Assembly: GCA_964016885.1 (NCBI GenBank)
Contig: OZ024742.1
Location: 92,690,001-92,754,000, forward strand
Direction: 5' to 3'
Length of the DNA: 64,000 nt
Origin: Eledone cirrhosa
Lineage: Eukaryota
The position numbers and the translations under genes were made by a program. Positions 11,581 through 64,000 of this stretch are shown here, in pieces. The notes below the pieces were generated by a model that did no database searches, was not told the DNA's origin, and saw only the letters and a program-made list of their open reading frames with translations. Position 1 is the first letter of the stretch; each line of letters opens with the position of its first letter.

Positions 11581-12241
11581 AATGTATGTGTAGATGTATA
11601 TTTCTACTTCTCTCTCTCATGGCTTGTAATTCTTTGTGTGTTATTTTCTCTCAATCTCAACTCCCCCCCTCTCTCAACTCTCCCAATGCAATTTTCTCTC
11701 CCACTTGCTGTTATATTCTCTCAATAACACCCTCCTCTACTGCTATTAACCTATCTCCCCCCTCACTCACTGTGGCTACTACTCATCCTCTCTCCCTGTC
11801 ACAACTTGCCATATATACATATATATATATATATATACATATATATATATATATACATATATATATATACACACACATATATATATATATATATATACAT
11901 ATATATAGTAATAATAATAAATTTGAAGACTAAAATCCAAAGAGGGCTCGATAAGGAGAAATATATATCAAATATATAAGAACCGTAGAGCAAATATTTA
12001 TTAAAATAACAGATTAAAGTTTAAGCAAAGAATCGCTGCTTTCACCCTTAACGGGATCTTCTGAAACTAACAAAGTCAATCTGTAAACGCAGAACTGGAT
12101 ATTTCAAAAAACGTTGCAACCGGAGGAAGACAGGAAGACGATACTTTGGTTCGTGGAAATGTTCGCTATGCAAATAAGTAAAGGAATAAACAAAAACTTA
12201 GCTCCCACATCAAGACATAAAATATCCACGTATAGATCGTA

Positions 12242-12830
12242 CTATCCGTTAGGGTATAACGTGGGGCTGTAGTACAGGAAAGTTTTGTGCAATTTATGTT
12301 TACAAGCCGAAATTGCCTCAGATTTTTTGTTTAAGATGTGGTCTGTGGTGTAGAGTATTTCCAGGGCCTCAGCGGCGCAGCGGTCACATGGTCTTTTATT
12401 TCCGTTATACGATCTAGCCCTAGCTAGGATCTCCCAGTGTAACTTATATTGGGTGTGGTTGTCTTTTAGACTCCAGATATAAGCTGAAAGTGACGTCATA
12501 TTCCTTCTTAGAGGGTAACGAAAAGAATGGGTATGCATGTAAAGACGCTGCTTGAAACTATTGGCGGTTAACCCTATGTAGGCCCTACGGGACGTGGGTG
12601 TTACAACCTTACATTTGTAGACAATGTTACTAGAGAGGCATTTCCCAGATAGGGGGCAATCAGCCCAATTCCTACAATTACAGTTAGTACTAACTACAGA
12701 GTTGCACGTGTTCCTACGGCTAGGTAGTTTAGCTAAATTTGAAGCTGTGATGTTATGTGCAAGGTTAGGAGTCGTAGAGTAAGAAATTTTAATAGTATTT
12801 CTATTAAAAATTTTACTATATTTATGTGTA
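12242..12830 (-). pseudogene. PLE C-terminal Cys linker + GIY-YIG endonuclease fragment
   Basis: HKYSKIFNRNTIKISYSTTPNL...CNCRNWADCPLSGKCLSSNIVYKC...AYIGLTANSFKQR; collinear with the C-terminus of 60301-62400. Confidence 0.9.
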
Positions 12831-13321
12831 GTTTCAAGCAGCGTCTTTACATGCATACCCATTCTTTTCATTACCCTCTAAGAAGGAATATGACGTCACT
12901 TTTAGCTTATATCTGGAGTCTAAAAGACAACCACACCCAATATAAGTTACACTGAGAGATCCTAGCTAGGGCTAGATCGTATAATGGAAATAAAAGACCA
13001 TGTGACCTCTGCGCCGCTGAGGCCCTGGAAATACTCTACGCCACAGACCACATCTTAAACAAAAAAATCTGAGGCAATTTCGGCTTGCAAACATAAATTG
13101 CACAAAACTTTCCTGTACTACAGCCCCACGTTATACCCTAACGGATAGTACGATCTATACGTGGATATTTTACGTCTTGATGTGGGAGCTAAGTTTTTGT
13201 TTATTCCTTTACTTATTTGCATAGCGAACGTTTCCACGAACCAAAGTATCGTCTTCCTGTCTTCCTCCGGCTGCAACGTTTTTTGAAATATCCAGTTCTG
13301 CGTTTACAGATTGACTTTGTT

Positions 13322-13372
13322 AGTTTCAGAAGATCCTGTTAAGGGTGAAAGCAGCGATTCTTTGCTTAAACT
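13322..13372 (+). ncRNA. Variant type I hammerhead-like motif in the PLE 3' region (mirror copy at 12018-12068, minus strand)
   Basis: agttt CAGAAGA stemII GAAA gca..tgc TT aaact; core has U4->A. Confidence 0.5.
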
Positions 13373-13403
13373 TTAATCTGTTATTTTAATAAATATACAT
13401 ATA

Positions 13404-60073: not shown

Positions 60074-62400
60074 ATGGAAAGGCATCATATAGGTATGTCA
60101 CTTAAAAACATACCTATACCTAACAAAAGGGAATATATTCTCAGTATGATTCAACGCAGTAACGACTTCATTCGGCGTGTACGATGGAAAGCTTTCCACT
60201 TCGATAAAGGACGCGCCAGTCACTCGTCTGAATCATATGGTTTTAAATCATGTAAAAACCCACCACAAACCCTCACCTCGAAGCTTTCGAACAGGACTTA
60301 TTGAAAACTACCATGAACATTAAGTTCAACAGACATAGACATAATGAGCTGCAGAACAACATGAAAGCACTACTCCGAAGATTGCAAAATACCAATGGAA
60401 TTGTTGTGAAAGCTGACAAGACTTCTAACGTGTATACCATGGATATCGATACGTATAATAACTTCATACGCAACGAACTACACAAAAAATATAGAAAAAC
60501 AAATGAAACTACGCTAGCAAATATTAACAACGAGGCATATAAAGTGGTAAAGAATCTCAAGATAGACGATAGAACCGAGCCGATTATACCCGCTACCCCC
60601 ACCTTCAACCTGAAGGACCATAAGGTAAATGTTGACTCTAACCCTAAGATTAGACTTATATGCCCTTCTAAATCAGACATAGGGAAAATTAGTAAACATA
60701 TACTTGACAGAGTAATAACTCAAGTGAAAAAGAAAATTGAAATTAAATTATGGGGCAACACTAGCGAAGCAATTCGCTGGTTTAATAATGTTAAGAATAA
60801 GAATAAATCTAAGTTTATACAATTTGACATAGACGAATACTACTCTTCCATCTCACCAAGCACTTTACGTAAGGCCCTATCGTTTGCTAAGACCAATTCC
60901 GACATAACGGAGGACGAAATTAATATTATTCTCGAGGCTAGAAAAACCATTATTAAGTTCGATAACTGCTACTGGGAACGTAAGGACAGACCCACAAATT
61001 TCGATATTACCATGGGTTCCAACGACTCGGCGGAGGTCACGGATCTCGTGGGAATTTACATAGCCTACATATTACATAGTAGATTTAGTAATCTACAGGG
61101 GGGGATATACAGAGATGACGGGCTCTTATTAGTTAATAACTTGAATAACCAAAATCTTGAAAGGCTACGGAAAAATATTAGAAAATCTTTTAGTGAACTG
61201 GGTCTAAAAATAACATACGAATACAATCTTAAGGTAGTAAAATTTCTGGACGTAACTCTTAATTTAAATACCGGACAGATACGACCCTTCCACAAGGTAA
61301 ATGAGAACCTTACGTATATTGACTTTAACTCTAACCACCCACTCTCCATGATCAAATCAGTTCCCCGGAGTATTTCTCTTAAAATCTCTCGCCTATCGTC
61401 TAATTCTGATATTTTTAGCGAACATGCTGAATACTACAATAATGCATTAAGGAATGCTGACCACCGGGATACAATAGAATACATCGATAGTAATTTCCAC
61501 AACATGCATAGCTCTACACGTAATCAAGGTATACGTAACCGGGGGACTAAAACACAAGCACACACACACTGTACTACCAGACATACTAATAATAGAAGAT
61601 CACCACCAAATAAATCACGTTGTAGAAAGTATATCTGGTATAATCCTATTTTTAATGCCTCGATTAGTACAAAACTATCTCTTTCATTCTTTAAATTAAT
61701 CAATAAACACTTCCCTAGTTCCCATAAGTACAGCAAAATTCTGAACTCCAAAACTATTAGACTATCATACTCCACGGCACCAAACCTTGAAGCATACATA
61801 AAAAAACTTAACTTAAGGCAATTAAACAACTCTACAAAACAAAACATTTTAGTAACAGATGGGCAGAACGCAATATCTGCCTCCCAACCACTAAATGTGA
61901 GACGGGTATTGCACAACCCACCTGTACCGCTATCACAACCTATCCATGGAATACCCGCTACCCACAACAAAGCATGTAACTGCCATCTACCTGAAAGATG
62001 TCCATTGCAGAATGAATGCCTAAAGTCCAACATTGTTTACCAATGCACGGTTGAATCGGACGACCAGAAATGGTATTATATCGGATCTACCACCACATCG
62101 TTTAAATCTCGCTGGTACCGTCATCGATTCTCAATCAAACATCAGAATCACCGTTTTGTGACCACGCTCGCCAACAAGACCTGGCAACTCCGTGAACACA
62201 ACCAAGAGTTCACCTTAAAATGGGCTATACTTTCCAGCGCAAATGCATATCGGAGTGGTTTGAAGTACTGCAGGTTATGTAACCTTGAGCTATTTTACAT
62301 ACTAAAATCCCAAAACAAACTACTTAACGATAGAATTGAACGATCATTATACTGCAACCACAAACTAAAAGCTAAATTCTCTCACTATAAAATAACTTAA
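60074..62400 (+). CDS. PLE polyprotein: RT + Cys linker + GIY-YIG endonuclease, with one frameshift near 60270
   Basis: SLKNIPIP..RWKAFHF N-terminus; ADKT, FIQFDIDEYYSSI, ITMGSNDS, IYRDDGL, FLDVTL; CNC..CPL..CL; IVY..YYIG..FKSRWYRH; CRLC. Confidence 0.93.
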
Positions 62401-62892
62401 CATTCGAACCCGTAACTACAACACCACTTTCTAGCTAACAACCTTCTCTTCCCCCCACACTACAAGACAATACACTGCTTATCACTATACATGGTAACTC
62501 AGTACAACTCCTAGAATACTACTACAAAACCAAAAGTTCACTCACCACACATATTTATCTGTCCCCTCTCTACCTATATATCTCTCTCTACATCCATTAC
62601 ACTCTCTCTCTCTCACCTTTGACCTACCCCCCCTCTCAACATTTATGAACCTGCCCTCTGGGGCAATAAATAATTCCGACCTCAACTATCTGCGCATCTC
62701 TCCAAAAGTAACTAATAAAACCCCTACCATAACATTTTGATTAAGATATCTACAAGCCACTCTCTCCTACTTCTCCAACCCCTACATATCTTTCCTTCTC
62801 TCTCCTTCTTCCCTACTTTTCTCTCTTCCTGTTCCACTCTATCTTCCCCAACAACCCCACTTAAGGGTTTTTACATTGTATATTTACCATTC

Positions 62893-63004
62893 TGCTCTGA
62901 GGAAACAGTGGTCACAGCATTGGATATTCGAGTTCTGCAAATACTTGTGAATTTGCACGTAGCGGAACTAGGCTGCAGCACCACCGTGGAAACACTTGTA
63001 AGCA
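62893..63004 (+). ncRNA. Hammerhead-like motif with long stem II in the 3' pLTR
   Basis: tgct CTGAGGA aacagtggt...accaccgtg GAAA cacttg TA agca. Confidence 0.7.
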
Positions 63005-63390
63005 CACGGAATAAACTACCTTTTTATGATGTCTACCTGTTATTATTCATTCTTTATATACACTCCGGAATACTGAAGGATCAGGAACTAAGTTTCTTGA
63101 ACAATTCTTCCATAACTCGTAGAGTAACCTCTTACCGTACGTCAACCATATCCAGTGTAGTAATTAACCATCACTACATCTTGGATATTCCTATACCTAA
63201 TATACAATATATATATATATATATATATATATATATATATATATATATATATATATATACATATATATATATATATATATATATATATATATATATATAT
63301 ATATATATATATATATATATATATATATATATACATTTATATCTATACATATATATATATATATATATATATATTTATATATATATATAT

Positions 63391-64000
63391 ACATTATGAA
63401 GAGAGAAGAAACATTTAGATATAATTAGTAATAAAATGTATCATACCTAAACTGTTCCTAAATTCCTCGACTACGTAGTTTCGTGGCATAAACAAAAACA
63501 ATATATCAAAGATATAGAGTCCTTGCGAGGTCTGCCAACTTATCAAGAGGATACCTCATTTTACTAGTCTCAAGAACGCGTCTACACGACGTGAGAAAGA
63601 ATCCCAAAAGGCGGAGGGGGAGATAGTCACGCGATATAACGGTCGAGAAACAGAGCTAAGCCTCTTATAACCACGAAGAAAATACCACGGAGGCGGAGGG
63701 GGTATTCATATCGAGGCCGTAGAAGGGGTAGTGAAGAAGGCGAGAAGTATGAGTAATGGAAGCTTTCCAGTTGTCCCCACATTTCAAAGATTGCTCGACC
63801 AGAGGGAGTTATTAATATATTTAAAAACACACAGATACATGCGGACACACACATATATACATGAATGCATCCGCACCCAACTGTGAGTTAAGGGTGCCAA
63901 CTTCACCGATGTTGCTCAATGAATGACTGGGACAGACCAATTCAGTTTGAACCAGACTGAACCAGTATCAGAGTTAAAAATACATTATGAAGAGAGAAGA
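63391..64000 (-). mobile_element. Start of a probable further HHR-bearing tandem element, unit 591 bp
   Basis: acattatgaagagagaaga at 63391 recurs at 63982; left end abuts (TA)n. Confidence 0.7.
63464..63551 (-). ncRNA. Type I hammerhead with U3-A8 core variant
   Basis: Minus strand: tcctc TTGATAA gttggca...tgccac GAAA ctacgtag TC gagga; palindromic stem III, GUC site. Confidence 0.85.

Follow-up and report, generated by a model that had tools for sequence, protein, structure and literature searches.

The window, a stretch of 64,000 nucleotides of Eledone cirrhosa DNA (contig OZ024742.1, positions 92,690,001 to 92,754,000), contains nine two-armed inserts. They belong to seven families, called A to G here. 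Outer ends are given below as site 1 (tailless) or site 2 (tailed).

11909..12831, minus strand: left arm of family A (Hydra-like PLE), with its tailed end at site 2, holding the C-terminal linker and GIY-YIG coding part (ORF 12242-12877); from mapping, with a full-length ORF relative in locus L275
12829..13396, plus strand: family A right arm, tailless end (site 1), with a hammerhead-like motif (CAGAAGA core) at 13327
13401..14518, minus strand: left arm of retrozyme D with 3.6 units of 310 bp, ending at site 2; from mapping (L244) and hammerhead scan; minimal type I hammerhead with palindromic stem III
14527..16178, plus strand: right arm of retrozyme D with 5.3 units of 310 bp, ending at site 1
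21516..22117, minus strand: retrozyme E left arm, a 466-bp unit plus 135 bp, site 1 end; from mapping (L258) and hammerhead scan
22129..22393, plus strand: retrozyme E right arm, end near site 2, TA tract absent beyond
22400..22600, no single strand: decayed B-related pLTR hairpin, about 78% like 40923; its minus arm is short (about 22400-22452) and its plus arm long (about 22456-22600), boundaries by eye
36078..36296, no single strand: pLTR hairpin of family C; the minus arm, 36078-36215, is tailed and the plus arm, 36232-36296, is tailless
38255..38884, no single strand: family C insert with arms abutting without overlap; duplicate at 46915-47545
40925..41119, no single strand: pLTR hairpin of family B; the minus arm is tailed and runs to 41058, the plus arm is tailless and starts at 41061
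48447..54802, minus strand: left arm of retrozyme F with 13.6 units of 467 bp, ending at site 1
54803..57592, plus strand: right arm of retrozyme F with 6 units of 467 bp, ending at site 2
59683..59763, minus strand: family G short inverted pLTR arm, tailless (site 1)
59756..63202, plus strand: family G near full-length Hydra-like PLE, tailed end (site 2)
35408..59682, no strand: degenerate (TA)n host tracts, up to 2.8 kb, partly multiplied by segmental duplications of 3-5.6 kb
11811-11907, 16165-16345, 21491-21516, 22601-22641 and 63207-63391: other host TA tracts

The last 15 bp or so of the retrozyme D right arm blend into a TA-like tract, and the joint of this insert holds an 8-nt filler. 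Stem II of the retrozyme E hammerhead is 49 nt. The 36078 hairpin has 11-bp repeats at its joint, duplicates at 41680-41899 and 44752-44971, and a coding parent in L274. In the 38255 insert, the minus arm is an 80-bp tail (38255-38336) and the plus arm consists of the 3′UTR and pLTR up to site 1. The joint of the 40925 hairpin is at the predicted transcription start; its duplicates lie at 44001 and 58571 and its coding parent in L171. The long family G arm runs pLTR, ORF, 3′UTR, pLTR with a long-stem-II hammerhead, tailed end. Its main frame (60256-62400) encodes 714 aa, and the N-terminal part, from about 60070, is in another frame. Real MITE-like elements also occur within TA in the window (5064-5176).

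The sense strand was taken from the ORF for families A (11909), B (22400 and 40923), C (36078 and 38255) and G (59680); in D (13404), E (21518) and F (48447) it follows from a hammerhead of the canonical CUGANGA/GAAA type. By sequence and mapping, the left arm is minus-sense and the right arm plus-sense in all nine inserts. This agrees with the preliminary description of the region, which had also counted the seven families correctly and had rightly kept the segmental duplicates at 41680, 44752, 46915, 44001 and 58571 out of its nine. A stem-checked hammerhead scan of both window strands gave 38 matches, all within these inserts or their duplicates; it missed 22400 (decayed), family C (non-canonical core) and family G (short stem I).

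The idea that a single machinery moves a set of non-coding RNAs had to be given up, because six of the nine inserts come from four coding Hydra-clade PLEs. The inserts 22400/40923, 36078/38255, 11909 and 59680 derive, as pLTR or 3′ fragments, from four separate elements, three of which are each 43-44% identical to the window ORF. Families A, B, C and G have a single ORF with an RT plus a GIY-YIG-type endonuclease at its C terminus. The open frames span 758 aa in B, 786 aa in C, 714 aa in G and at least 645 aa in A, with YRDD and a VY..Y[IT]G nuclease motif. Atlas neighbours at 0.96-0.99 are annotated as GIY-YIG and RVT_1 on part of their members; a Pfam search gave no match for the G protein or the A fragment, and PDB sequence searches gave none to the ORF below an E value of 0.07. 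RW[KR], DKT and CNC-x5-C occur in all four families, and CxxC with CxH in B, C and G (the A frame ends earlier). Among 114 aligned proteins, 105 have RW[KR], 110 have CxCx4-6C and 94 have DKT. With regard to the CCHH feature of the nuclease, no cysteine pair was seen by eye within the GIY-YIG core. As in other PLEs, there are pLTRs, an inverted 5′ copy, a tail at one end and a (TA)n target.

The pLTR hammerhead of family B is canonical in the scan; the family G core is canonical by eye, with a long stem II. Hammerhead cleavage in families A and C is doubtful on the sequences, because the A core is non-canonical (CAGAAGA in 69 of 75 counted copies) and C, in which the canonical core is absent from 13 of 13 copies, has no C3-G8 pair. 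Element periods are 3.1-3.3 kb, and 6.0 kb in the one B copy measured, which has other repeats inside. Genome copies were collected by exact-motif search; the genome-wide counts (20201, 10111, 5217 and 4001) amount to tens of thousands of young copies.

The non-coding families are limited to D, E and F. All three are tandem non-LTR retrozymes, with units of 310, 466 and 467 bp, respectively, and a type I hammerhead in each unit; no PLE ORF was found next to them in the loci examined. Rfam matched family F only (HH9, E 6e-6, below the gathering score). Rfam miRNA matches in the window were rejected, as they were TA repeats or the 59718 hairpin. Minimum-energy folding did not yield the hammerhead fold for most families. 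The seven pLTR or unit regions share only short likeness, at the hammerhead (B-D, D-F) or the ORF start (B-C), so no retrozyme can be assigned to a parent.

Polarity was then followed through the genome in position order, using the first 100 matches for five families and every match for two. Among the 592 matches listed, strand switches within 1 kb are minus-to-plus in 92 cases (3 of them the window's own) and plus-to-minus in 1; within 10 kb the numbers are 124 and 8. The sole opposite case within 1 kb is two separate head-to-head inserts facing across TA. An inverted partner accompanies 31 of 85 further hammerhead-like matches, mostly of other families: it is upstream in 28, downstream in 2 and on both sides in 1. 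The head-to-head polarity of hammerhead/PLE inserts is confirmed as real, genome-wide and beyond chance. One real tail-to-tail rearrangement (L284) is an exception.

The polarity rule holds for two-armed inserts. Its extension to all insertions was too strong, because some copies are one-armed. Of 145 central matches, 75 were two-armed, 51 had no partner of at least 24 nt and 19 ran off the end of the locus; 43 of the 51 were inspected by eye, and about six had a 7-14 nt arm of the other site, while several were plainly one-armed. The polarity itself is not novel either. In the accessible part of Arkhipova et al. 2013 (PMC3846280), head-to-head inverted pLTRs are already the most frequent arrangement of Adineta Penelope. 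Head-to-head arms, one-ended tails and (TA)n targets are known PLE features that have already been described.

The position of the outer ends is more specific than had been proposed. They do not fall at just any TA microhomology; instead, every family has a fixed pair of sites separated by about 30-140 nt, the tailless site 1 and the tailed site 2, and an insert takes one of each. TA-flanked 3′ ends lie at these sites in 271 of 274 cases, in windows of 20-33 nt (summed) per family, yet 27-49 TA dinucleotides are available per family within the first 310-460 nt. The windows were derived from the data themselves and widened for D and E. When both ends of a two-armed insert are on a site, 145 of 148 inserts combine site 1 with site 2, retrozymes included. 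The three exceptions are two 1+1 inserts and one 2+2 insert (L254), the flanks of which are also inverted, as in a fold-back. At least one end is off-site in 21 of 169 joined inserts. Before these 169-insert end counts, 26 query-biased rows (the best copies of 40923) were excluded; the same set was left out of the variant, joint, end-window and arm-nesting counts, with slightly different cut-offs. Tails are about 66-142 nt in the coding families, and no obvious common structure was found among the tails of the families. The one-of-each rule was not found stated in the literature searched; earlier subscription papers and supplements may describe it.

The two-site, two-arm signature of the coding PLEs recurs in retrozymes D, E and F. 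At the level of insertions, the genome provides evidence that animal retrozymes use PLE machinery, which has so far been argued from phylogeny and co-occurrence.

TA flanks most ends of the window inserts, as had been described, with the exception of the right end of 21518 and the left end of 22400, which have no TA tract. The enrichment is borne out by the 169 joined inserts: 113 have TA on both sides and 153 on either side, against 510 of 7984 background 20-mers. The postulated TA microhomology is present as 1-6 nt of T/A at each end site; that it sets the end position is not supported. The TA target was there beforehand, as paralogous empty sites of the inserts in L081, L182 and L306 already contain TA. 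These empty sites, and the LINEs and many other families that occupy the same tracts, make it most improbable that the PLE reverse transcriptase synthesises the flanks in the manner of telomerase. Such synthesis would suit the sister relationship of PLE RTs to telomerase, given in the available text of PMC8557442, and the TA-like flank of the filled L081 site, which is 185 bp compared with 18-108 bp in most empty paralogues.

The two arms of an insert resemble each other more than they resemble other inserts. Divergence within versus between inserts is 1.3% versus 7.8% in C, 0.5 versus 1.7 in G, 0.5 versus 3.0 in F, 1.5 versus 3.0 in A, 0.08 versus 0.66 in B and 0 versus 0.3 in D; the comparison for E covers 2 inserts and is not significant. 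A recurrent variant was shared by both arms in 127 cases and confined to one of them in 23. This sharing fits equally well one RNA molecule, two transcripts of one source, or later conversion. The tailless arm lies within or level with the tailed arm in 76 of 123 inserts and reaches more than 15 nt further upstream, so that the arms are non-nested, in 47. Non-overlapping arms were flagged in 8 of the 123, one of which (L207) is a deletion. Joint letters vary from copy to copy: filler is present in 38 of 107 joints, and microhomology of at least 3 nt in 23% of 69 direct joints, compared with 6.5% for the null. At four F joints there is an overlap of 30-51 nt, which lies on an internal hairpin.

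The reading that fits these inserts best is the one already favoured in the preliminary description, two primed cDNAs joined 5′-to-5′. A single cDNA (or an antisense transcript, as in the accessible part of PMC3846280) could alternatively snap back at a palindrome, copy itself and rejoin the target. The palindromes and stem-I-like filler at joints, the overlapping F joints, the variants common to both arms, the 76 nested or level inserts and the fold-back-like L254 would all suit this. As a general route it is contradicted by the 47 non-nested inserts, whose tailless arm has sequence missing from the tailed arm. The tail is also always on the tailed arm and missing from the other, and the fixed stop site of the second arm is left unexplained. 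We therefore consider it improbable. We judge it very improbable that the hairpins are preformed palindromic elements (MITE-like, or from a hairpin master copy) moving as a unit, or assembly artefacts of TA-rich DNA. Nearly the same hairpin is seen in 40 of the 40 best-scoring copies of 40923, and the MITE-like elements at 5064-5176 are real; however, those 40 copies were chosen by a query containing the joint, and a fixed hairpin family was rejected on this ground. Joint letters and arm lengths differ in each copy, and the arms are unequal, range from <15 bp to >6 kb and are part of coding PLEs. A MITE or other DNA transposon, with symmetric TIRs and a fixed interior, was likewise rejected: the ends differ (site 1 versus site 2), the joints vary and the parents encode an RT. 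Against an artefact, opposite-strand joints and the same end sites are present in other samples, including three raw reads for one joint.

The 5′ ends of the arms fall at initiator-like motifs in 64 of 86 arms in C, 14 of 38 in B, 20 of 60 in A and 8 of 54 in G, and a TATA-like box lies about 30 nt upstream in B and C. In the shortest inserts both arms stop at the predicted transcription start.

We propose, with a probability of roughly 0.7, that two-armed (TA)n inserts of Hydra-clade PLEs and hammerhead retrozymes end with one arm at each fixed site because the enzyme of the element cleaves both strands and initiates reverse transcription once per site, a programmed twin priming. The PLE protein, probably a dimer, would nick both strands of a pre-existing (TA)n tract. 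The two 3′ ends may then prime on the sense RNA, one at the tailless site 1 and the other at the tailed site 2, aided by 1-6 nt of U/A pairing, with the position chosen by the protein. Both cDNAs would extend toward the RNA 5′ end, and therefore the RNA-sense 3′ ends would point outward. The two cDNA ends would be joined directly, through short microhomology or palindromes, or with short filler. Hairpins of about 200 bp could be double run-offs at the 5′ end of a pLTR-started, uncleaved mRNA, and multi-unit retrozyme arms may derive from tandem or circular RNA. Retrozymes would have kept both cis sites and would rely on a borrowed Hydra enzyme.

Whether one RNA or two serve as template bears on a variant of this explanation, the one closest to the model of the preliminary description. 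In it, two independent RNPs with separate RNA molecules prime the two strands, an asymmetric complex gives one of each site, and the arms match as one source locus dominates in a germ cell. The hybrid insert L271, in which a B-related PLE arm and a retrozyme E arm meet head-to-head, a switch from family A to C-like sequence inside one arm of L205, and the 23 of 150 recurrent variant sites found on one arm only are in its favour. Most tailed arms also extend past site 1, and with a single RNA this calls for strand displacement. However, L271 is the one credible hybrid after all loci were scanned for joints between the seven families (the other rows are low-complexity), abutting non-overlapping arms as in L1 twin priming do occur (38255), and identity within inserts is well above that between inserts. 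We hold this variant to be unlikely. Common source variants and some abutting arms would be in keeping with one RNA molecule, but one hybrid insert would not.

A bolder proposal, to which we would give slightly less than even odds, is that programmed twin priming is the normal mode of PLE integration. An asymmetric RT-nuclease dimer would set the two cut strands on two fixed sites of one RNA. This one step would account for the inverted pLTR and the tail at one end only, as well as for palindromes at the junctions and the swarms of tiny pLTR hairpins, and both sites would be the minimal cis signal for carriage of retrozymes in trans. The origin of the tandem and inverted repeats, tails and microsatellite bias of PLEs is named as an open problem in the accessible part of PMC8557442. 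The two-site rule, which likely reflects both cut DNA strands priming RNA copying at once, offers a testable answer. The abundance of young copies yields a sharp prediction, namely one product with two strands and two different start sites. The open-frame Hydra-like ORFs and short RNAs are the material for a direct test.

In L1 elements, the second primer is at variable internal sites and the arms are largely non-overlapping. L1 twin priming (Ostertag and Kazazian 2001, as described in the available part of PMC10760644) has two target priming events and cDNAs joined by microhomology into 5′-to-5′ arms. In L1 it is occasional, whereas in the present genome it is the usual result, with two fixed sites and arms that overlap in most cases. 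Families D, E and F resemble the non-LTR retrozymes, which are 150-470 bp tandem non-coding units with a type I hammerhead each and are proposed PLE derivatives (Cervera and de la Pena 2020, PMC7229834; bioRxiv 10.64898/2026.07.22.740005, both in their accessible parts). A term search of these two accessible texts found no description of inverted two-armed arrays or insertion ends. Opposite-strand hammerhead pairs are reported in Schistosoma (available part of PMC4209133). The joint palindromes and the tail on one inverted pLTR are as in Adineta Penelope; the explanation offered in the accessible part of PMC3846280, self-priming on an antisense template, does not fit the non-nested arms here.

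The Hydra clade comprises C-terminal EN+ PLEs and, in the available text of Craig et al. 2021 (PMC8557442), is defined by RWK, DKT in place of DKG, a CxCX5C linker, and CxxC and CxH flanking conserved E and N. The coding families share RW[KR], DKT, the linker, CxxC/CxH around E/N (B, C and G), an ORF of about 700 aa, a hammerhead or hammerhead-like motif in the pLTR and (TA)n targets. An inverted 5′-truncated copy and a tail at one end are general PLE features in that text, which does not state strict one-of-each pairing. Unlike the clade as described there, tails are about 66-142 nt in the coding families instead of 30-40 bp, periods are 3.1-3.3 kb (B 6.0 kb in one copy), and several hammerheads have a long stem II or a non-canonical core.

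The closest biochemical data are for Poseidon of Anolis carolinensis, which in vitro cuts and extends both strands of an AT-rich target (Frangieh et al. 2024, PMC11167929). Two internal start sites bound its tail, the RNA template is uncleaved and a dimer is predicted; the inverted arm was not modelled and later integration steps were left unvalidated there. The strands did not differ in start site, and this site lacked homology to the cut DNA, so strict one-of-each use is not reproduced in vitro. The inserts of Eledone have in common with Poseidon the two sites bounding the tail and the AT-rich target, here from insert sequences. They differ in that each site serves once per insert and has short TA microhomology.

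All nine two-armed insertions in the window had been described as having a left arm of minus sense and a right arm of plus sense, and the sequence together with arm mapping bore this out for 9/9. When both strands of the window were scanned for hammerheads with a check on their stems, 38 matches resulted, every one within these inserts or their segmental duplicates. The scan passes over the decayed insert 22400 and families C and G, for which ORFs set the sense. The hammerhead cores of families A and C are non-canonical.

Two-armed inserts in the window (left arm minus, right arm plus), exact-motif matches in the genome (one motif per family) and the two 3' end sites, counted from the search motif
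Family A: insert 11909; 20201 matches; sites 69/154
Family B: inserts 22400 and 40923; 4001 matches; sites 55-68/134
Family C: inserts 36078 and 38255; 10111 matches; sites 51/134
Family D: insert 13404; 69 matches; sites 170/196-203
Family E: insert 21518; 23 matches; sites 103-108/217
Family F: insert 48447; 5217 matches; sites 260-265/334
Family G: insert 59680; 117 matches; sites 82/224

Families A, B, C and G are each part of a separate coding element, with an open frame of 645+, 758, 786 and 714 aa, respectively, and the A, B and C proteins are 43-44% identical to that of G. In the window copy of G, the N-terminal portion sits in a different frame. Database proteins matching at E 1e-20 or better number 610, and Atlas neighbours bear GIY-YIG and RT families. 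All four proteins bear RW[KR], DKT and CxCX5C, and B, C and G also bear CxxC and CxH (the A frame ends earlier); these motifs diagnose the Hydra clade of Penelope-like elements (PLEs), with (TA)n as targets (PMC8557442). It follows that the 200-bp inserts, proposed to be non-coding RNAs in their own right, are pseudo-LTR (pLTR) fragments of these coding elements. Families D, E and F consist of non-coding units in tandem that contain type I hammerheads, and so rank as non-LTR retrozymes; sequence comparison of the fetched loci found no parent ORF for them. More Hydra-like ORFs (40-55% identity) occur in fetched loci L026, L029, L065, L185 and L278. At L177 1825-4731 (minus), between two B matches, lies a distinct PLE-like ORF, presumably Neptune/Nematis-like, whose linker is CX4CXXC and whose N-terminal region is rich in asparagine.

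The polarity extends through the 3.0 Gb genome. Among the 592 matches listed, opposite-strand neighbours no more than 1 kb apart were head-to-head (arms joined 5'-to-5') in 92 cases versus tail-to-tail in 1; up to 10 kb the figures were 124 versus 8. The sole close tail-to-tail pair is two head-to-head inserts facing each other over TA. Locus L284 is a genuine tail-to-tail rearrangement. When 1.45 Mb of fetched DNA was scanned without regard to family, 85 further hammerhead-like matches appeared, against 0 in the reversed sequence. For 31 of the 85 an inverted partner was present, lying upstream in 28 cases, downstream in 2 and on both sides in 1; this tally may count both arms of one insert, and a few of its rows are family B. 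By eye, about 20 further type I hammerhead families crowd into TA tracts in the fetched loci, several with a stem II of 30-60 nt. Twelve B matches at G000:C1:83679791-83691682, on a single strand and spaced by about 1.08 kb, are probably a local tandem amplification.

The expected TA flanks were also found. Both sides were TA-like in 113/169 joined inserts and either side in 153/169, against 510/7984 background 20-mers. Paralogous empty sites of three loci (L081, L182 and L306) already contain TA. The 169-insert set excludes 26 query-biased rows. Duplicates were recognised by the letters at their joints and flanks and merged, and a few segmental copies may persist.

In every family there are two fixed sites for the 3' ends, each finishing in 1-6 nt that match TATA. 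With site windows derived from the data themselves, 271/274 TA-flanked ends fall on the two sites, despite dozens of alternative TA dinucleotides. Both ends lie on a site in 148/169 inserts: 145 use one of each, two use site 1 (the tailless end) twice and one uses site 2 (the tailed end) twice. The remaining 21/169 head-to-head inserts have at least one end off-site. The retrozymes show the same pairing (D 10/10, F 12/12, E 3/4). In other samples and a second organism the same ends were seen as TA loose ends, with three opposite-strand joints, one within raw reads; the data do not give joint polarity. That all inserts are two-armed was only partly upheld. Of 145 central matches, 75 are two-armed, 51 lack a partner of at least 24 nt and 19 run beyond the fetched locus. 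Inspection of 43 of these 51 showed that about 6 conceal an arm of just 7-14 nt belonging to the complementary site, and that several are one-armed, joined directly to the target.

How do two arms arise? Fold-back of one cDNA, of which L254 has the appearance, would confine the tailless arm inside the tailed arm. The tailless arm extends more than 15 nt beyond the tailed arm in 47/123 inserts, and the arms do not overlap in about 7/123. Fold-back is thus insufficient as a general route, and the arm sequences indicate that two priming events are needed per two-armed insert. Arm mismatch is lower within than between inserts in 6/7 families (permutation P 0.0035 or less; family E, n=2, is not significant), and recurrent variants occur 127 times on both arms and 23 times on one. 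Judged from these sequences, the arms of one insert represent the same source variant, from one RNA or two transcripts of one source. A single hybrid insert (L271), with a B-related arm and an E arm, shows that two RNAs can serve one insert and hints at a B-related element as carrier of E. At L205 1526-1682 a single arm passes from family A to C-like sequence at the predicted C start site, which suggests that the template switched from an RNA of one family to an RNA of the other.

In each two-armed insert, two cDNAs would be primed separately and then joined, and the joints are formed separately in each insertion. Filler is present at 38/107, and microhomology of at least 3 nt is enriched (23% versus 6.5% expected). 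Four F joints employ an internal palindrome. Same-polarity cDNAs that stop at one place anneal only via palindromes, which would account for palindromes at the junctions; in Adineta Penelope they were interpreted as antisense self-priming (PMC3846280).

In short hairpins both arms end at one motif, preceded in B and C by a box about 30 nt upstream; the motif is initiator-like and the box TATA-like. This suggests that both cDNAs run off at a predicted mRNA 5' end. In 4/23 G inserts the arms measure 3.8-4.2 kb, more than a transcript running from start to tail would cover, and those of F extend to as many as 13.6 units. Tandem RNA of greater length, circles or template jumps would therefore contribute as well. 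In the C pLTR (L274 3790-3860; window 38780-38850) the hammerhead-like motif has a long stem II, and within it fall both the TATA box and the initiator that are predicted. An mRNA started there would be missing the 5' half of the core, which stays complete in the 3' pLTR. The arms span the hammerhead cut site uninterrupted, in agreement with the uncleaved template used in vitro by Poseidon of Anolis carolinensis (PMC11167929).

The TA tracts of the window hold other sequences. 5'-truncated LINEs with RT ORFs, which we assume to be CR1/L2-like, lie at 36349-37737 (RVT_1, E 6.5e-23; duplicates 41960-43348 and 45008-46396) and 32707-35400, in one orientation only, and terminate in short 8-12 bp repeats. 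Through nested 3-5.6 kb segmental duplications (35511-48526), with breakpoints in TA tracts, the hairpins of families C and B, together with a LINE, have been copied two or three times. Between TA tracts at 63392-64000, running on in L061 to about 1260, are 1.5 direct copies of a ~585-bp unit in which no hammerhead was found; its end reappears adjoining other inserts (L025), and it may be a non-autonomous element belonging to a PLE that lacks a hammerhead. A 113-bp MITE-like element with imperfect terminal inverted repeats occupies 5064-5176. No PLE inserts lie in 16759-17327, 18458-18611, 29367-30361 and 30971-32705, which are made up of degenerate minisatellites (23-48 bp) and very long TA tracts that are likewise degenerate.

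The two-armed polarity is a real, genome-wide trait of known element classes. Head-to-head inverted copies, one-ended tails, Hydra (TA)n targeting and a PLE origin of retrozymes are already published. In the literature searched there was no account of one-of-each pairing or of its reach into retrozymes, and no twin-priming model for PLEs. The start sites of the anole enzyme showed no homology to its target, whereas the sites here end in 1-6 nt matching TATA. That enzyme also used either start site without strand preference (PMC11167929), which counts against strict one-of-each priming. Here 145 of the 148 inserts with both ends on a site use one of each, a sharp rule that makes the open insertion mechanism testable.
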